Source of the DNA: Aliivibrio fischeri ES114
Lineage (GTDB): Bacteria > Pseudomonadota > Gammaproteobacteria > Enterobacterales > Vibrionaceae
DNA length: 32,000 nucleotides
Strand: one strand, 5' to 3'
NCBI RefSeq assembly: GCF_000011805.1
Contig: NC_006840.2
The translations under genes and the position numbers were made by a program. The notes under the pieces are model-generated. The model saw only the letters and a list, made by a program, of their open reading frames with translations. It was not told the DNA's origin and searched no databases. Shown here one piece after another: positions 2,310 to 31,463 of the stretch; the first letter of the stretch is position 1; each line of letters begins with the position of its first letter.

Positions 2310-5063
2310 ATGAAAGGTTATTGGTTGGCGTTTATTGCTTGCTTGTTTATTTCAGGATGTGCAACCACATCAGTTACAGAACTTAAATCTGATCCTCGTT
2401 GGGTCAGTGGTCAGCTTGATAATGGATTCCGTTATCATATTTATCCTGATCGAGAAAAAGAAGTATCTATTCGTTTTATTGTACATGCTGGCTCATTTCA
2501 AGAGACACAAAATCAAAAAGGTTACGCTCATTTCGTAGAGCATATGGCTTTTAATGGTAGCGAACACTTTTCGCAAAATGATGTTATCTCTCTATTTGAA
2601 GATGCAGGATTAAGTTTTGGAGCGGATATTAACGCTTACACTTCTTATTCTGAAACCGTGTATAAACTTGATTTACCTGATAACTCTCAGCTTAACAATG
2701 CGCTTGTTTGGATGAGAGATATTGGTGATGGTATTGAACTGTCATCTAAAGAAGTGGAAAAAGAGAAAGAGGTTATTCTTGGTGAGTTTCGTTACTCAAG
2801 GTTAGAAGATAAGCCTATTTCGGCTCAGTTTTATGAGCATATGACCGCAGGAACTGTTTATGAAAATAGCGATCCTATTGGGAATAAGGAGTCGGTTTTA
2901 TCTGCGTCCTCAACACAACTTACAGAGTTTTATCAGCAGTGGTATCAACCTCAATTAACCGAAATTGTTATTAGTGGCGATGTTACTCTTGAAGGTGCGA
3001 TTACACTGATAACTAAACATTTTGAAAGTTGGAAGAAAGGTTCTTCAGCTGTAAGTACGATGCCATTAGAGCCTCTAAATCAAAATGACTTTATTGTTAA
3101 AGTGGCAAGTGGTGAGCCACCAAGTATTGCTCTGGTTATTGATCGTGGTGATTTTAGAGTAAATACAAGAGAACAGCAGCATCAACTATGGTTAGATGAA
3201 ATTGCTCATTCAATTATTCAGCAAAGGTTAGGTGGTGTATTCCTTGACGCTGCAATGCCTGTTCAATGGATTTACTCGACGGATTACTATGTATCTGATC
3301 AGCGTTATTTTATTTCTTCAGTCTCATTTCCTGCTAGTTATAGAACCCAAAGCCAAACACTATTTTTAGATACGTTAGCTTCATTACGAGATCATGGTGT
3401 GTCACATGGTGAGTTGGATAACTTACTTCAACCTTATCATTATCAACTTGATAATCTTGATGCAAATCTTGAAAACTTAACGCCTTATGATCATGTTGAA
3501 AACAGAGTTAATGGTGTTGTGAGTCAGCAGATAAGTCAATCCAGTTTAGATTACAAGGCAAGTTTGACGTCATTTTTAGCAGCGACAGATTTGAAGGTTG
3601 TTAATGATCATATTGATGAGTTGCTTTCGTCTTCATACCAATTTGCTATTGGTGTTGATGCCGTTGAATCTCTCTCTCAAATAGAATTAAGTATTCCTGA
3701 GTTAAAGTCTGTGTATGCAAAATCGGGAAGTGAACCACTAATTAATAATGTTAGTGCTGCTTTTCCTGTTCCAATGAGCAGTGGAATTATTTTGTCTGAA
3801 ACTAAATTATTTGAGGAGGTTGATTTAACTCGCTGGACACTAGATAACGGATTAAATGTTCTTTATTTGAGAAAAACCGATGCCGGTGATGACGTGGTGT
3901 TTTCGTTAGCAAGCCAAGGCGGAATAGCTGCATTGCCTTCAGAGTTGATACCAGCCGCGAATATTGCCATACCAGCAGTGACTCGTAGCGGTCTTGGTAA
4001 ATTCACGGGCTCTCAGTTAGATGCTCATTTGAGAAATGAAGGTATTGAGCTTTATCCTTTTATTAATTTTACTCATCACGGTCTTGAAGGAATTACGGAT
4101 AAAGAAGGGCTTGCTGAGACGTTTGCTGTAATTACTGCAATTATGTCTGAAATTAATGTTGATGAAGAGCAGTTAAAAGCGGTAAAGCAGGAGTTTGAAC
4201 AAAACAGAGATGCTTATATCTCTACATCTCTTGGTCAGTTTACTAAAGCTATTAATAGGAACACTTATTCTTCTACTAATCGACATCAACTACTTGATGG
4301 GGAGGATGTAAATCTCGTTACTAGTGAACAGATTAAACGAGTACATCAGTTATTATTTCAACAGAATCGTAATTATCAGTTAGTGATTGTAGCTGATTTA
4401 AAACCGTCAGAGTTAAAACCATTACTTCGTCAGTACTTAGCAAATATACGTTTAGGTGCTGCAGAGAAAACGAATTACGCTGTTACTTATAAGTCAGATT
4501 CTGTACCGAGTATTAGCATGGCGGTAAATACCGAACAGAGTAGTCATTATATTTCTCAGTTTATAGCGGTTCAGGGCTTGGAAGATCACTCTGCAAAATC
4601 CATTTTTATTCAGGATATGCTGCAAAGAATAGTATCTAAGAGATTGATGCACTATGTTCGAGAAGAACTCAGTTTAGATTATGCTCCATATGCGCTTATG
4701 GTGAATGCTGACAGTGAGTTTAAGCCTCATTGGGTTATGGGGGCACAAGTTGACCCTAAGAATGCAGAACTTATTGAATCTGCCATTGATAAGGTAATAA
4801 AAGATTTATTACGTGGGGTAACAGAAAATGAAGTTAATGCTGCAGCTAAACAGCTAGTGGTTGATTTAGAACCATTAAAAAATAACAGCACTCAGCAAGC
4901 ATGGCTGCTAAATCGTTACACCATACATAACTACGGAATTGAAGCTCTATTTGGTATTTCAGAAACAGCAAACTCAGTTAATGCAGAAGATATAAATAGA
5001 TTGATCAAATATTCATTTGGTAAAAACAGTCATCAATTTAAGTATCTATCGACTCCAATTTAA
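2310..5063 (+). CDS. M16-family zinc metallopeptidase (PqqL-like, double M16 unit), predicted lipoprotein
   Basis: 917-aa ORF. N-terminal signal with lipobox (LFISGC at residues 12-17). Inverted zinc motif HFVEHMAFNG (HxxEH) in the first ~80 residues. Size and two-lobed organisation are typical of PqqL/YddC-like periplasmic peptidases. Confidence 0.8.
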   Translation: MKGYWLAFIACLFISGCATTSVTELKSDPRWVSGQLDNGFRYHIYPDREKEVSIRFIVHAGSFQETQNQKGYAHFVEHMAFNGSEHFSQNDVISLFEDAGLSFGADINAYTSYSETVYKLDLPDNSQLNNALVWMRDIGDGIELSSKEVEKEKEVILGEFRYSRLEDKPISAQFYEHMTAGTVYENSDPIGNKESVLSASSTQLTEFYQQWYQPQLTEIVISGDVTLEGAITLITKHFESWKKGSSAVSTMPLEPLNQNDFIVKVASGEPPSIALVIDRGDFRVNTREQQHQLWLDEIAHSIIQQRLGGVFLDAAMPVQWIYSTDYYVSDQRYFISSVSFPASYRTQSQTLFLDTLASLRDHGVSHGELDNLLQPYHYQLDNLDANLENLTPYDHVENRVNGVVSQQISQSSLDYKASLTSFLAATDLKVVNDHIDELLSSSYQFAIGVDAVESLSQIELSIPELKSVYAKSGSEPLINNVSAAFPVPMSSGIILSETKLFEEVDLTRWTLDNGLNVLYLRKTDAGDDVVFSLASQGGIAALPSELIPAANIAIPAVTRSGLGKFTGSQLDAHLRNEGIELYPFINFTHHGLEGITDKEGLAETFAVITAIMSEINVDEEQLKAVKQEFEQNRDAYISTSLGQFTKAINRNTYSSTNRHQLLDGEDVNLVTSEQIKRVHQLLFQQNRNYQLVIVADLKPSELKPLLRQYLANIRLGAAEKTNYAVTYKSDSVPSISMAVNTEQSSHYISQFIAVQGLEDHSAKSIFIQDMLQRIVSKRLMHYVREELSLDYAPYALMVNADSEFKPHWVMGAQVDPKNAELIESAIDKVIKDLLRGVTENEVNAAAKQLVVDLEPLKNNSTQQAWLLNRYTIHNYGIEALFGISETANSVNAEDINRLIKYSFGKNSHQFKYLSTPI

Positions 5064-9551: not shown

Positions 9552-9565
9552 CGATGATAATAAGG

Positions 9566-9585
9566 GATGTTTCACGTGGAACATC
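9566..9585. repeat. Palindrome family copy 2 (GATGTTTCACGTGGAACATC)
   Basis: 20-bp palindrome with one mismatch, in the 70-bp thiC-thiE spacer. Confidence 0.75.
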
Positions 9586-9621
9586 TCTTAGTTTTGTATA
9601 CGGAATTGAGGTGAGACAGCA

Positions 9622-10281: not shown

Positions 10282-11107
10282 CCAGTTAATGGAAGGGTTA
10301 AGTGACCAAGATTTTCTGCGTTATAGCCGTCAAATTATGTTGCCTGATATTGGTGATAAAGGGCAAATAACATTAAGAAATAGTACGGTTCTAATAATCG
10401 GTTGTGGCGGATTGGGTTCTTCGGTTGGAATGTATTTATCCGCTTCTGGTATCGGTACATTAATCATTGCTGATGGAGACAAAGTTGAATTAAGTAACTT
10501 ACAGCGACAAGTGGTGTATCGCGATAACAACTTAAATCAAAATAAAGCGATGGCAATGGCGCACCAACTTAAAGGGTTGAATGGTACAACTCATATTGAA
10601 GTGATCAGCCATAAGTTAACAGAGCCAGAGTTATCCCGTTTTATTAATCAAGTCGACGTGGTTTTGGATTGCTCTGATAATTTGCCAACGCGTCATGAAA
10701 CTAATGCGGCATGTGTAAAGCATAACGTTCCACTTATTTCTGGTGCAGCAATTGGATGGCAAGGGCAGTTAATGTTGTTTTCAAATCAGGTTACGGAAAA
10801 TAACACGTCGTGCTATCACTGTTTATTTCCTTTTACTGAAAGCCAGCAAACACAAAACTGTCAGTCGTTCGGAATTGTGGGACCGGTGGTAGGCATGATA
10901 GGAAACTTACAGGCATTAGAAACCATTAAATACCTTACTCAACCTAGTTACATGAAATGGGACACCATTCATCAGTTTGATGGCCGCTCTTTGGCTTGGT
11001 CATCGATAAAAATTCCAAAAGACAGCCAATGTTCAATCTGTGCTTCAACAGTAACTAATGATGTTTCACGTGAAACACACTCAAAGGGAGAGACTTGTCA
11101 TGAGTGA
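10274..11107 (+). CDS. thiF: Sulfur-carrier protein ThiS adenylyltransferase
   Basis: E1-like fold: RYSRQIMLP, nucleotide loop GCGGLGS, and two CxxC pairs (CYHC, CSIC). I prefer ATG 10274, which lies 6 nt after AGGAGG, over the ORF-track TTG at 10268. Overlaps the thiE stop by 8 nt. Confidence 0.85.
   Translation: MSNQLMEGLSDQDFLRYSRQIMLPDIGDKGQITLRNSTVLIIGCGGLGSSVGMYLSASGIGTLIIADGDKVELSNLQRQVVYRDNNLNQNKAMAMAHQLKGLNGTTHIEVISHKLTEPELSRFINQVDVVLDCSDNLPTRHETNAACVKHNVPLISGAAIGWQGQLMLFSNQVTENNTSCYHCLFPFTESQQTQNCQSFGIVGPVVGMIGNLQALETIKYLTQPSYMKWDTIHQFDGRSLAWSSIKIPKDSQCSICASTVTNDVSRETHSKGETCHE
11061..11078. repeat. Palindrome family copy 3 (ATGTTTCACGTGAAACAC; perfect 16-bp core 11062-11077)
   Basis: Lies inside the last ~15 codons of thiF, where it encodes ..DVSRET.., and just upstream of thiS. 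Confidence 0.75.
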
Positions 11108-15775: not shown

Positions 15776-15954
15776 TATGTGTAGTCCTATATTCCTTTAA
15801 ATTCCAAGGAAGGATTACGTATAAAGAGAACTTTGTATGTGACCAAATTATGGTTTGTATTAATAACATTGAGTGATTTATTGTTAGTTAGATATTGTGG
15901 CGCAAAATGTTTGTATCTGTGAAATAAATTACATAATAAATTTGAACTGTAACC

Positions 15955-15972
15955 ATGTTTCACGTGGAACAT
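15955..15972. repeat. Palindrome family copy 4 (ATGTTTCACGTGGAACAT)
   Basis: 18-bp palindrome with one mismatch in the hexosaminidase / aminopeptidase intergenic region. Same TTTCACGTGGAA variant as copy 2. Confidence 0.75.
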
Positions 15973-15983
15973 ATATTTTTTAC

Positions 15984-28176: not shown

Positions 28177-28600
28177 TGTCGGAAGGATGCTGACACGGAA
28201 CAGGAACTAGCCAAGGATTTGGTACGCTTCAGGACGAGGCACTCGGTTACTTAGGATTAGTAATCGGCATGGATAGCGAAATGGACATTGAATGGACGCA
28301 ATAGTAACTAGGATGGTTGCTACTAAGGAAAGACAATGGACACCTCTAGGATTGAGGTAAATGGACTGCACATCAGGATGATGTAAAGGACACCGCTCAA
28401 GGAACAAGCGAAGAGAGTTAACTAAGGATTGTTAACGGATCAGGATAGATCATGGACACCGCTAGGATGGCGACGAAAGGAATAAGCTGACGGATTCAGC
28501 ATACTATCAAGGATTTGATGCATGGAGCACCATTAGTAGCCGGACTGCTGCGAGTAAAGTTATAGCCCCGCTAGATGAAAATCTAGTGGGGCTTTTCTTG
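28177..28600 (+). ncRNA. csrB: CsrB-family sRNA (CsrA-sequestering sponge)
   Basis: I count about 28 GGA triplets by eye in ~420 nt. Most occur as AAGGAU / CAGGAU / UAGGAU / AUGGAC, and many sit in loops of short hairpins (e.g. GTGTC-GGAAGGATGCT-GACAC at 28176-28196). The region ends in a strong terminator AGCCCCGCTAGAT-GAAA-ATCTAGTGGGGCT followed by a T tract (28564-28600). A UvrY/GacA box lies upstream. The 5' end is a prediction. Confidence 0.88.
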
Positions 28601-28618
28601 TTTAGAGCAAAGTAAAAA

Positions 28619-28680
28619 GCAGGGACGAGAGGCGAGGACGCTTCGCTCGAGGAGCAAGGAAAAGCAAAAGCCGATTCAGA
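28619..28680 (+). repeat. Degenerate copy of the composite GGGAC / GCTTCGC / AAGCAAAAGCC / TTCAG module
   Basis: GCAGGGACGAGAGGCGAGGACGCTTCGCTCGAGGAGCAAGGAAAAGCAAAAGCCGATTCAGAATTG shares ordered blocks with the reverse complement of 31397-31463. Its first 12 nt are identical to 31162-31173. Confidence 0.65.
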
Positions 28681-28700
28681 ATTGTAATGAAATATGGTAT

Positions 28701-28881
28701 CAACAACCCCCTCTAACTCCCCCTTGTATTGATATTATCGATCCCAGTTATTCATAGATAAAGGGGGAAGAACCTTCTTTGGTGTGGATATTTCAGCGAT
28801 CACAATAGTGTTCCTCCCCTTGAGTAAATATCTCATGTGATCACCAATGTCGATATAAGGGGAGGTTAGGAGGGGTTGTGA
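28701..28881. repeat. Self-complementary ~180-bp element, copy 1 (complete, with both G/C-rich inverted termini); MITE-like or structured RNA
   Basis: The left end CAACAACCCCCTCTAACTCCCCCTT (28701-28725) is an imperfect reverse complement of the right end AAGGGGAGGTTAGGAGGGGTTGTG (28857-28880). Inner arms also pair: AAGGGGGAAGAAC (28761-28773) with GTTCCTCCCCTT (28810-28821), and TATTGATATTATCGATC with GATCACCAATGTCGATATA. Confidence 0.7.
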
Positions 28882-28908
28882 GTAGAGACTTTAGTGATTC
28901 AATGTCTT

Positions 28909-29061
28909 TATTGATATTATCGATCCCAGTAATTCATAGATAAAGGTGGAGAACCTTCTTTGGTGCGGATATTTCAGCGCTCACAATACAGTTCCTCCTC
29001 TTGAGTAATATCTCATGTGATCACCAATGTTGATATAAGGGGAGGTTAGGAGGGGTTGTGA
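28909..29061. repeat. Self-complementary element, copy 2 (lacks the left terminus)
   Basis: Aligns with 28727-28881 along its whole length, with a handful of substitutions and two 1-nt deletions. Offset is 180-182 bp. Confidence 0.8.
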
Positions 29062-29127
29062 ATGCAGGTTTTCACCTCTACAACTAACTTGTTGTGTCTT
29101 AAGTGAAGTTATTTATCTTTTGATCTT

Positions 29128-29213
29128 ATAGTCTCTAGTTAACGAAGCGTATAAGCTCTTCCTGAAACCTGAAACCTGAAACCTGAAACCTGAAACCTGA
29201 AACCTGAAACCTT
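29128..29213. repeat. Composite repeat: 16-mer ATAGTCTCTAGTTAAC + GAAGCGTATAAGCTCTT + (CCTGAAA)x7
   Basis: Seven perfect CCTGAAA units at 29161-29209 plus a partial unit, ending 17 nt from the tatD stop codon. The 16-mer (29128-29143) is the exact reverse complement of 31234-31249. Confidence 0.85.
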
Positions 29214-29229
29214 CAAGCAAAGCGATCTC

Positions 29230-29991
29230 TTAAACCCCAAACAATTTCATCGCATTCGCCGTCGTAATTGCATCCACATCAGCCAAACTAATTTCACGTA
29301 AATCTGCCACTCTTTGAGCAACTAACTGCGTATACGCAGGCTCATTTCGCTTACCACGATGTGGCACCGGTGCTAAATAAGGACAATCGGTTTCTAGGAT
29401 TAAATAATCCATATCAAGATGAGGAATAATCTTATCCATCCCGCCATTTTTAAAGGTAGACACACCACCAAGGCCTAAATGAAACCCTAAATCATTAATG
29501 GCTTTTGCTTCATCAACTGAGCCACCAAAGCAGTGGAAAACACCAGATAATGAACCATCTTGTTCTTGTTTTAATAGACTTAATGTTTCTTCAATAGAGT
29601 CACGAGTGTGAATCACAACAGGTAGTTTCATCTCTTTTGCCCAATTTAATTGGGTAATGAATGCCATCTCTTGTTCTGCTTTAAAGGTTTTGTCCCAGTA
29701 TAGGTCAATACCTATTTCACCTACCGCAATGAAATTATGCTTTTCAAACCATGAGTGAATGATTGCCAAGGTTTCTTTCACGTCAGCGTTCACATAACAA
29801 GGGTGTAATCCCATCATTGAATGGCAAACCTCAGGATATGCGGCTTCCGTTTTGAGCATTGGTTCGATAGATTCTAAATCGATGTTAGGTAGTAGAATTT
29901 TGCTAATACCTTGTTCTAGTGCGCGCTGAACAACCGCATCTCTATCTTCATCAAATTCTTTTGCATAAATATGAGCGTGAGTATCTATCAT
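29230..29991 (-). CDS. tatD: TatD-family metal-dependent deoxyribonuclease/hydrolase
   Basis: 253 aa. N-terminal MIDTHAHI (HxH metal site) and further TatD/YcfH-family blocks (GEIGIDLYW, PVVIHTRD, VFHCFGG, LLETDCPYL). Confidence 0.85.
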   Translation of the reverse strand: MIDTHAHIYAKEFDEDRDAVVQRALEQGISKILLPNIDLESIEPMLKTEAAYPEVCHSMMGLHPCYVNADVKETLAIIHSWFEKHNFIAVGEIGIDLYWDKTFKAEQEMAFITQLNWAKEMKLPVVIHTRDSIEETLSLLKQEQDGSLSGVFHCFGGSVDEAKAINDLGFHLGLGGVSTFKNGGMDKIIPHLDMDYLILETDCPYLAPVPHRGKRNEPAYTQLVAQRVADLREISLADVDAITTANAMKLFGV

Positions 29992-31161: not shown

Positions 31162-31249
31162 GCAGGGACGAGAAAAAGTAGGGTTCAGGTCGCTTTGCTT
31201 AAAGGTTTCAGGGGAAATGTGGTGAGCTTTGGTGTTAACTAGAGACTAT
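31162..31249. repeat. Composite repeat, mirror image of 29128-29213: GCAGGGACGAGA.. GGGTTCAGG.. GGTTTCAGG.. GTTAACTAGAGACTAT
   Basis: Starts 3 nt after the hemB stop. Contains TTCAGG-type units in the opposite orientation to 29161-29213 and the 16-mer GTTAACTAGAGACTAT (31234-31249). Confidence 0.75.
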
Positions 31250-31311
31250 GCGCTGCGCTGACTAGAAACTATAAGAGCGAGAGTCTTGAATGTTGTAAGT
31301 TCTTTAATCCC

Positions 31312-31361: not shown

Positions 31362-31463
31362 TCCTGAATCCTGAATCCTGAATCCTGAACCCTGAAATTA
31401 GTACCGGTAAGGCTCTTGCTTTTGCTCTTATAGAAGCGAAGCGTTCTAGTCCCTAGTCCCTAG
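31362..31463. repeat. Composite repeat: (CCTGAAT)x3 + CCTGAAC + CCTGAAA, spacer, GGCTCTTGCTTTTGCTCTTATAGAAGCGAAGCGTTC, (TAGTCCC)x2
   Basis: Heptamer tract at 31362-31396. The TAGTCCC units (31448-31461) run into the stop codon and last three codons of the minus-strand gppA/ppx gene. Confidence 0.85.

Follow-up and report, generated by a model that had tools for sequence, protein, structure and literature searches.

Repetitive extragenic palindromic (REP) sequences, with the bacterial interspersed mosaic elements (BIMEs) and the REP doublets forming hairpins (REPINs) built from them, are short imperfect hairpins outside genes with an unpaired tag at one end. They are found as singlets, as inverted doublets that fold into long structures and as alternating arrays with fixed linkers, and in BIMEs the two alternating types are named Y and Z. 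The repeats are polymorphic between strains, and a small partner gene, that of the REP-associated tyrosine transposase (RAYT), is flanked by inverted repeats. Two tag superfamilies of REP sequences are recognized, GTAG and CGTC, and no family from Vibrio, Aliivibrio or Marinomonas is listed among them (PMC3733652). In the present study, we analysed a tandem pair of palindromic elements of ~180 bp downstream of the csrB gene of Aliivibrio fischeri ES114. The DNA analysed (the window) was a stretch of 32,000 nt from contig NC_006840.2 (assembly GCF_000011805.1), to which the coordinates refer unless another sequence is named. The REP traits named above were all recognized in this pair and its relatives: tagged extragenic hairpins, singlets, long-folding inverted doublets, alternating arrays with fixed linkers, two alternating arm types, polymorphism between strains and a small gene flanked by inverted repeats. 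It was shown that the pair belongs to a family of extragenic, polymorphic repeats built from tagged arms, and that such arms are associated with DUF559 nuclease genes in Aliivibrio and in many phyla. We consider it probable that the pair is an array of two tandem units from a DNA-level family of palindromic extragenic repeats, which is of the REP/BIME (REPIN) kind but has DUF559 as its partner instead of RAYT. A tagged palindromic extragenic repeat is a known kind of sequence; for this family, its cross-phylum terminal 23-mer and its DUF559 partner, no description was found in the full-text literature searched by sequence strings and keywords.

The tandem pair and its arm module

Tandem Repeats Finder placed the repeat at 28727-29061, with a period of 180, 1.9 copies, 93% matches and 1% indels. 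The comparison of the copies gave three gap-free blocks at offsets 180, 181 and 182, which amounts to two 1-nt indels. Both results agreed with the preliminary description of the locus, made from the sequence alone, which had reported a tandem pair of ~180 bp with few substitutions and two 1-nt indels. Its tandem core starting at 28727 was also confirmed, but the bounds of the element had to be corrected: the conserved palindrome spans 28703 to 28879, and the repeat unit also takes in a weakly conserved tail or spacer of 30-45 nt after GGGGTTGT. The terminal 23-mer AAGGGGRRGTTAGRRGGGGTTGT occurred three times in the window, with none expected by chance. Copy 1 carries it on either end and copy 2 on the right only, just as had been noted for the missing left terminus of copy 2. 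One long imperfect hairpin had been proposed for each copy. This held for copy 1 (28695-28885, plus strand), which folded at -75.1 kcal/mol vs -49.3 +/- 4.3 for shuffled sequences (z = -6.0); its minus strand reached -62.1 kcal/mol (z = -3.8). However, copy 2 alone folded no better than its shuffles (z = 0.09). The pair is made up of the following parts.

28703 to 28725, plus strand: left-arm terminus of copy 1, the tag ACAACCCCCTCTAAC followed by TCCCCCTT, the 5' half of the arm stem (type A); exact terminal motif on the minus strand, the same 23-mer as in 94 loci
28726 to 28760, plus strand: left-arm loop of copy 1, 35 nt, variable by subfamily; from alignments of 18 and 10 full copies
28761 to 28769, plus strand: left-arm inner stem half of copy 1, AAGGGGGAA, pairing with 28717-28725; from the sequence, the stem type matching the tag type
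28770 to 28812, plus strand: central linker between the arms, with the small conserved hairpin GGTGTGGATATTTCAGCGATCAC; from the fold and the consensus fold
28813 to 28821, plus strand: right-arm inner stem half of copy 1, CCTCCCCTT, type B; from the sequence and the matching of type B tags and complements
28822 to 28856, plus strand: right-arm loop of copy 1, 35 nt; from alignments
28857 to 28879, plus strand: right-arm terminus of copy 1, AAGGGGAGG (3' stem half) and the tag TTAGGAGGGGTTGT; exact motif match
28880 to 28908, plus strand: inter-unit spacer, truncated in the window; in A. logei the spacer has 43 nt and a complete left terminus follows
28909 to 29059, plus strand: copy 2, without left tag and stem half, retaining the loop remainder, the degenerate inner stem AAAGGTGGAG, the centre and a complete right arm; nhmmer match to model positions 25-183
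29037 to 29059, plus strand: right terminus of copy 2; terminal motif match
29060 to 29100, plus strand: terminal array tail GAATGCAGGTTTTCACC..., homologous to the internal spacer and holding a 14-codon open reading frame (ORF); compared with the tails of A. logei, A. finisterrensis, A. sifiae and a metagenome-assembled genome (MAG)

The ATG-led 14-codon ORF after copy 2, to which attention had been drawn earlier, was rejected as a gene. Its frame was not conserved in the homologous tails, as those of A. logei, A. finisterrensis and A. sifiae differ by frame-shifting indels, and the internal spacers have no ATG.

The basic module was shown to be the arm, which consists of a 9-bp C/G-rich stem and an unpaired 14-nt tag (TTAGGAGGGGTTGT), here with a 35-nt loop. 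The left arm stem is CTCCCCCTT...AAGGGGGAG (type A), the right arm stem is CCTCCCCTT...AAGGGGAGG (type B), and the unpaired tag beside each stem reads TTAGGAGGGGTTGT or ACAACCCCCTCTAA. When the copies were compared, the termini and two inner segments were conserved and the two 35-nt stretches between them varied by subfamily. In the motif-selected loci, the matching 9-mer complement stood no more than 70 nt upstream for 32 of 52 type A tags (only that of type B was found for 1, both for 3), and 28 of 54 type B tags had their own complement upstream (the type A complement for 2). The rare stem variants AAGGGGAAG and AAGGGGGGG were likewise paired with their own complements, which gives four stem variants in all. 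In other phyla, the arm loop has only 3-6 nt and the doublet is a mosaic of such hairpins of 80-150 nt, for example in a Nomurabacteria MAG (locus L047). One Aliivibrio copy (L074) joins a large-loop left arm to a small-loop right arm. The long hairpin formed between left and right arm has 50 consensus pairs, 3 of which showed a two-sided compensatory change, with a covariation term of -0.42 kcal/mol. The pairing of arm against arm was ~65% Watson-Crick, and on the plus strand 155 G.U pairs stood vs 113 A.C pairs among related copies. The long hairpin is best seen as a by-product of two homologous arms in inverted order. In this pairing, the T.G pairs flanking the CTAAC/GTTAG core were invariant in 10 of 10 aligned copies (columns 11-171 and 17-165). 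Judged from the sequences, the organisation is that of the REP/BIME and REPIN doublet plan, with tagged hairpins of two alternating types, fixed inner and outer linkers, and singlets, doublets and arrays.

Dispersal of the family and its link to DUF559 genes

A scan for the 23-mer AAGGGGNNGTTAGNNGGGGTTGT over one genome per species yielded 94 loci, while by our own estimate ~4 chance matches were expected (19 fixed bases, about 1.2e12 strand-bases). Many of the loci were from Aliivibrio, including A. fischeri, A. logei, A. finisterrensis, A. sifiae and unnamed species. Further loci were found in the Vibrio harveyi group, Photobacterium, Enterovibrio and Marinomonas, and distant ones in Patescibacteria, Planctomycetota, Poribacteria, Nitrospirota, Gallionella and one cyanobacterium. 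With blastn and an iterated nhmmer profile, at least 92 non-overlapping copies were detected in the Vibrionaceae loci examined. They lie at non-homologous sites, and the profile search of related Vibrionaceae that the preliminary description had proposed thus found an element not unique to this locus. The copies were full palindromes, half elements of ~100 nt and tandem arrays. Half elements stood alone or in pairs whose 23-mers face each other at a distance of 40-100 nt, and inverted doublets of both polarities were present. Array members recur every 219-221 nt in A. logei; in V. jasicida and Photobacterium the period is about 300 nt. ORFs of at least 150 aa make up 67% of the DNA of these loci, yet not one of the 92 copies overlapped any of them. 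On the A. logei chromosome (NZ_OZ183475.1, 3.11 Mb), at least ~20 copies were counted across five 8-kb tiles (L029, L063, L072, L075 and L088), each holding an exact 23-mer. All five tiles fell within 2.648-2.848 Mb, which suggests regional clustering of the repeats among the exact 23-mer matches that were sampled. The 23-mer had no match in 2.9 million viral contigs, and a phage vector is thus unlikely. Rfam gave nothing on the element at the gathering score (whole window) or at E <= 10 (28550-29260), and nothing on six related loci.

To find recurrent neighbours, ORFs of at least 90 aa from the 94 motif-selected loci were clustered. The sole family that recurred beside the motif across distant taxa was a protein of 100-135 aa, present at 14 of the 94 loci, and in the eight closest cases it lay 0-119 nt away. 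This protein is DUF559 (Pfam PF04480, E about 1e-31), with weaker MTES_1575 and DUF2726 nuclease matches. The motif-linked genes were from Aliivibrio, Vibrio, Marinomonas, Patescibacteria, Nitrospirota and Deferribacteres. Their geometry was constant: the upstream arm is a right arm whose tag points at the gene, and the downstream arm is a left arm. In the gene-bearing unit, which carries the nuclease gene, the 23-mers face inward. The distance from the end of the upstream tag to the DUF559 start was 3 nt in a Deferribacteres MAG (GTG start), 9 nt in a Minisyncoccia MAG and ~105 nt in Aliivibrio. The termini had earlier been read as outward-facing Shine-Dalgarno-like tracts, and this agrees with the presence of the same terminus 3 to ~105 nt upstream of DUF559 ORFs. 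The downstream left arm starts 2-5 nt past the stop codon in Aliivibrio and V. jasicida, or holds the stop codon itself in Marinomonas and Doudnabacteria. In Aliivibrio, the gene lies between tpiA and groEL, in A. logei right after an array of 3.5 units, and the arms flanking the Aliivibrio genes (L020, L021, L026, L062 and L088) scored 70-94 bits against the model of the csrB-type element. By tblastn, there was no DUF559 gene in the window itself. In the Nomurabacteria MAG (L047, 3003-4088), compact mosaic elements stand on either side of a 276-aa ORF, with their 23-mers outermost. This ORF does not encode DUF559, and the clustering did not show it as a recurrent, transposase-like family.

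The association was also examined starting from the protein. Related hairpin-plus-tag repeats, some of them in arrays, adjoined each of five DUF559 homologues on long contigs (5 of 5). These were from Aliivibrio (type 2, at the same locus, 59% identity), Moritella, Cellvibrio and Brenneria. In metagenomes, a scan with the DUF559 alignment gave 80 loci, which were searched with four tag consensus variants allowing at most 3 errors. In the 150 nt upstream of the gene, G-strand tags reached a density of 3.3 per kb, and in the 150 nt downstream C-strand tags reached 2.0 per kb. From 1 kb outwards the density was 0.00-0.02 per kb, and no tag fell inside the gene. The enrichment within 150 nt is therefore more than 100-fold and orientation-specific. 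Tags of the opposite strand peaked one step further out, as would be expected if doublets flank the gene. Both flanks were available for 69 metagenome loci; a tag was present beside the gene in 34 of these, and in 11 it stood on both sides. The type-2 DUF559 of Aliivibrio (122 aa, 59% identical to type 1) is located at tpiA-groEL in L100 and L101 and is followed by one or two compact doublets, whose centre is like that of copy 1. The extra doublet is accompanied by a repeated 13-nt flank and a spacer of ~43 nt, indicating that it arose by tandem duplication.

DUF559/YcjD has been grouped with Vsr in the PD-(D/E)XK superfamily (PMC3424549; PMC1189080). Among 23 DUF559 sequences, D53, E64, D66 and H70 were invariant and several arginines were kept, and the nuclease looks functional from these sequences. 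The closest solved structure was 3HRL, an uncharacterised 'endonuclease-like protein'. In E. coli K-12 (L189, NC_000913.3 1351040-1351830), the ycjD stop codon lies inside a CCCTCTCCC...GAGGGGG hairpin, and a 45-nt duplicate of the ycjD 3' end stands ~60 nt downstream. Further downstream, between ycjD and fabI, is the module CCCCTCTGGGGAGAGGGTTAGGGTGAGGGG, again a hairpin followed by TTAG and a G-run. The 76-nt stretch with CCCCTCTGGGGAGAGGGTTAGGGTGAGGGG, which occupies 1351189-1351264 of the K-12 genome and 3690-3765 of L189, was found at a median of 17 places per genome in 5426 E. coli genomes. This module is probably the 'Box C' repeat of E. coli. Box C repeats were reportedly noted first beside envM (fabI), and were reportedly treated by Bergler and colleagues in 1992 (envM/fabI region) and by Bachellier and colleagues in 1996. 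In the literature searched, no link between the module and YcjD was found, and what was found on DUF559 said nothing about repeats. At the sapF-fabI site, ycjD occurs only in lineages without eefRABCD (PMC12817139).

The array between csrB and tatD

The gene order in the window is ubiB-tatA-tatB-tatC, csrB, the elements, a (CCTGAAA)7 array, tatD on the opposite strand and hemB. The non-repeat features next to the pair and the heptamer array are as follows.

28286 to 28603, plus strand: CsrB small RNA (sRNA) gene, Rfam RF00018, 99.2 bits, full-length model; upstream context, outside the repeat
28564 to 28603, plus strand: csrB intrinsic terminator, made up of a 13-bp stem (7 of the pairs G-C) and then TTTCTTGTTT; from a terminator scan
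29161 to 29212, plus strand: perfect heptamer array (CCTGAAA) x 7.4 between the elements and tatD; Tandem Repeats Finder

The presence of a CsrB-like sRNA just 5' of the elements had been proposed earlier and is borne out by the Rfam match (99 bits). The distance from its terminator to the tandem duplication is 100 nt. The history of the pair could be followed by comparison with A. logei. In the csrB-tatD array of A. logei (L029), complete palindromes are each followed by a 43-nt spacer, GAGTAGAGACTTTAGTGATTCAATGTCTTTATTGATGTTTTTTAG, and then by the next left terminus, indicating that the duplicated unit was the palindrome plus its spacer. The homologous second copy is complete there. When the two species were aligned, exactly 39 columns were gone in the window, between ...GTCTT|TATTGAT and ...CTTA|TATTGAT. 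As the gap of 39 bp is bordered by 7-nt TATTGAT direct repeats, the left terminus of copy 2 was evidently lost by deletion. The preliminary description, puzzled by the missing terminus, had concluded that the duplication was not a simple double insertion; a tandem duplication of unit and spacer followed by the 39-bp deletion explains it.

The element is polymorphic within A. fischeri. The TatD of the window was 99% identical to the A. fischeri representative of its protein cluster, and the contig of that representative (L107) has near-identical csrB and tatD genes and no palindromic element between them. Instead, the site is filled by ~190 nt of another short-repeat family and ten CCTGAAA units. 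The suggested check for an empty site thus gave one A. fischeri genome without the element, that of assembly GCA_007989845.1, but the target-site duplications sought in the same check were not found at any of 10 solitary or terminal copies. Among the contigs listed that carry the exact TatD of the window, all ended 26-47 nt after tatD, short of the repeats, as would be expected of a multi-copy repeat. The structured DNA after csrB does not belong to the sRNA but is a polymorphic repeat, which accounts for the breaks of short-read assemblies in the csrB-tatD interval.

A. fischeri has one CsrB gene at this locus. Two tandem CsrB genes each were found in A. logei (L029, copies at 2820-3136 and 4318-4634 of that locus), A. 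finisterrensis (L002) and A. sifiae (L035), spaced by 1.0-1.5 kb. Palindromic elements follow 5 of these 6 copies (both in A. logei, both in A. sifiae, one in A. finisterrensis), indicating that csrB and the repeat were duplicated together, and the elements are a plausible substrate for the csrB tandem duplication in the three species. In a Vibrio outgroup (L108), the gap between tatC and tatD is only 70 nt and csrB is absent there.

The heptamer array is likely a variable-number repeat that often stands beside Aliivibrio arms. Similar arrays adjoin arms as (CTGAAAT)9 in A. logei (L088, beside a left arm) and as (AGTTAGC)n in Photobacterium (L039), and a second perfect array, (CCTGAAT)-type x 5, follows hemB in the window at 31363-31400. 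Downstream of hemB (31172-31284), there is also a second intergenic repeat family of ~125 nt, GAGCAGGG..TTCAGRTCGC..AAAGGTTTCAGGGG..GCGCTGCGCTRACTAGA..CTATAAGAG, and it is this family that fills the csrB-tatD site of L107, at 73.6% identity. In many Aliivibrio loci, short recurring modules, for example CTCTAGTTAGCGAAGCGTATAG, were found next to arms. The tatD-hemB pair is bracketed by an inverted repeat of 26 nt (92% complementary; 29203-29228 and 31187-31212), which is part of this repeat mosaic. Elsewhere in the window, three tandem units of 126 nt (100%, 100% and 83% identity) were observed at 1841-2218, starting inside an Rfam tRNA call (1800-1873); they probably represent tRNA genes arrayed in tandem, together with hairpins that resemble terminators. 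The palindrome ATGTTTCACGTGRAACA was present at three sites (9562-9589, 11056-11077 and 15950-15977) and could be a shared operator or another small repeat.

Interpretation and comparison with known systems

In the REP-like array with DUF559 as its partner, two homologous arms in inverted order give the palindrome of ~177 bp, and the palindrome with its ~43-nt spacer is the unit that was duplicated in tandem. The array between csrB and tatD is on this view a polymorphic passenger that was inherited with csrB in the genus, co-duplicated with it in A. logei, A. finisterrensis and A. sifiae and trimmed here by a 39-bp deletion at microhomology. The DUF559 nuclease may recognise the arms, probably as folded single strands or cruciforms, and may nick or cut this hairpin or snap-back DNA in trans, as RAYT does with REP/REPIN, and in this way keep the repeat population alive. 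Arrays may grow and shrink by slippage or unequal recombination. Gene-less units consisting of right arm, spacer and left arm (R-spacer-L) may have arisen from the gene-bearing unit by deletion. The array spacer of 43 nt could be aligned to the beginning of the 5' leader of DUF559 (its first ~45 nt, at modest similarity), which fits such gene-deleted derivatives. Vsr cuts T.G mismatches, and one might speculate that the two invariant T.G mismatches flanking CTAAC/GTTAG in snap-back left-right arms are the substrate of DUF559. It is possible, though we hold it only tentatively, that DUF559/YcjD proteins are dedicated trans enzymes of a pan-bacterial hairpin-plus-tag superfamily including the Aliivibrio element and probably the E. 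coli Box C, that repair or recombination spreads and homogenises the repeats, and that this is a second, non-HUH solution of the REP/REPIN-RAYT kind. If a nuclease does mobilise or maintain these repeats, they would represent a new repeat-enzyme class and would give a function to DUF559 (COG2852, YcjD), a very large family with a solved structure, for which the arm module is a candidate substrate across phyla.

Several points weigh against the REP-like array with a DUF559 partner. The copies were counted in 8-kb tiles that hold an exact 23-mer, target-site duplications were absent, and the 'empty' allele of L107 is a replacement by another repeat, which leaves no clean filled/empty pair. About half of the protein-selected loci had no tag at the stringency used, and both the Aliivibrio type-2 gene and E. 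coli ycjD have repeats downstream only. A PD-(D/E)XK nuclease alone is not known to be a transposase. Moreover, the association could come from a gene inserting into the repeats rather than from a gene spreading them.

Among other explanations, a locally duplicated spacer, whose likeness to other genomes would be due to chance or composition, would agree with the presence of only two adjacent copies in the 32-kb window. However, it is refuted by the 94 loci vs ~4 chance matches estimated, by the 92 copies at non-homologous Vibrionaceae loci and by the orientation-specific enrichment beside DUF559, and the probability left to it is negligible. An RNA function was also considered, in which the elements act as a 3' extension of CsrB (a stabiliser, a processing site or extra GGA sites for CsrA) or as an independent sRNA. 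The element lies on the csrB strand directly downstream of the gene, it is kept after csrB in four Aliivibrio species and co-duplicated with it, its plus strand folds 13 kcal/mol better than the minus strand, and its termini carry GGA and AGGA motifs. REP-type repeats are in addition known to affect mRNA stability (PMC3733652). Yet the strong csrB terminator lies upstream, no sigma-70-like promoter was found in the element, and the RF00018 model ends with the terminator at 28603. The GGA motifs are base-paired in the long hairpin and not exposed in loops as for a CsrB/RsmB member, which speaks against the suggestion that AGGAGG/GGA-rich ends matter next to a CsrA sponge. Nor did the structured RNA envisaged earlier, made by read-through from CsrB or from its own promoter, find an Rfam match in the window, 28550-29260 or the six related loci. 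The covariation check on aligned copies also went against it (3 of 50 pairs compensated), the excess of G.U over A.C pairs is a weak asymmetry among related copies, the same family stands at many unrelated loci, and one A. fischeri genome with near-identical csrB has no element. We thus found no support for an RNA or CsrA role of the elements and consider it improbable.

Of the three readings offered at first, a palindromic element similar to a MITE (miniature inverted-repeat transposable element) came closest, as the element is dispersed, extragenic and polymorphic; the lack of target-site duplications and of a parent, together with the single-arm unit, did not agree with it. A classical MITE would be mobilised in trans by the transposase of an insertion sequence (IS) sharing its ends, with DUF559 as an unrelated neighbour or cargo. 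Terminal inverted repeats of at least 23 nt, the size of ~180 bp, strong fold-back, dispersal, presence/absence polymorphism and the breaking of short-read assemblies at the site would all be in line with this. However, no solitary copy had a target-site duplication, no transposase family stood beside the motif in the clustered ORFs of the 94 loci, where DUF559 was the sole recurrent neighbour, and single arms and alternating arrays are not MITE-like. The motif was also absent from the viral contigs. We therefore regard a classical MITE as quite improbable. Another explanation is that DUF559 is a homing-type nuclease gene, which would cut the R-spacer-L junction of pre-existing REP-like arms (spread by other means), repair then copying the gene into it. 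The constant place of the gene between a right arm and a left arm, exactly where the 43-nt spacer stands between GGGGTTGT and ACAACCCC, would be explained by this, and R-spacer-L units without the gene occur at other loci. A survey of PD-(D/E)XK proteins placed Vsr and DUF559 in one group with 3r3p, the structure of an intron homing endonuclease (PMC3424549), Vsr-like folds being known in homing endonucleases, and ycjD replaces eefRABCD in some E. coli lineages (PMC12817139), with the 45-nt duplicate of its 3' end downstream. However, in Aliivibrio DUF559 was seen only between tpiA and groEL, with one gene per locus, while several repeat sites would be expected, and neither the dispersal of the repeats nor the conservation of the 23-mer across phyla is explained by homing. 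It therefore appears unlikely, though it deserves some weight.

Compared with known systems, the preliminary description had seen no likeness to ERIC, VCR/attC or REP consensus sequences, and in our comparisons Rfam gave no match, the cores do not fit the attC consensus and the tag is neither GTAG nor CGTC. ERIC and other described families have no sequence or Rfam similarity to the element. With attC sites and the Vibrio cholerae repeats (VCRs), the element shares imperfect palindromes of 60-180 bp in Vibrionaceae, arrays, folded single strands and GTTAG/CTAAC-like cores. However, the spacers here have 29-45 nt without ORFs, there are no gene cassettes and no integrase nearby, and the site is csrB-tatD (neighbours tatC, csrB, tatD and hemB) and not a superintegron. 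The attC core consensus is RYYYAAC/GTTRRRY; CTCTAAC has a pyrimidine where a purine is needed, and GTTAGGA and GTTAGAG end in a purine in place of a pyrimidine. An identity with attC/VCR or ERIC is thus ruled out by architecture and sequence. MITEs such as Correia, ERIC/IRU and RUP are similar in size, terminal inverted repeats (here 23-nt inverted termini), fold-back, intergenic site and insertion/deletion polymorphism, but here no target-site duplication or transposase-bearing parent was found (no autonomous IS with the same ends and a transposase was among the 94 motif-selected loci), and half-elements are modular.

The E. coli module CCCCTCTGGGGAGAGGGTTAGGGTGAGGGG is closer, being dispersed and having a C/G stem, then TTAG and then a G-run. 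It differs in its compact hairpin with a tiny loop and in the tag variant GGTGAGGGG rather than GGAGGGGTTGT. The group of repeats that we propose to flank DUF559 genes has a C/G stem, a YTRG linker and a G-run tag, on the G strand upstream and on the C strand downstream, and this arrangement was found in Aliivibrio. For old orphan repeats such as Box C, it may provide a first handle. In comparison with REP/BIME/REPIN, whose plan is shared, the differences are in the parts. The tag here is TTAGGAGGGGTTGT (TTAG-GAGGGGTTGT or CTAA-type), the stem is a C-run/G-run, and the 35-nt loop of Aliivibrio makes a doublet of ~177 bp vs ~70-110 bp. The 23-mer is near-identical across phyla whereas REP sequences are lineage-specific, and so far there are tens of copies per genome (in 8-kb tiles), not hundreds. 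No RAYT gene recurred beside the motif in the clustered ORFs of the 94 loci, among which not all ORFs were scanned against Pfam. The flanked gene encodes a DUF559 Vsr-like PD-(D/E)XK nuclease and not an HUH Y1 transposase, and RAYT may thus not be the only enzyme class to which populations of REP-like repeats can be linked.

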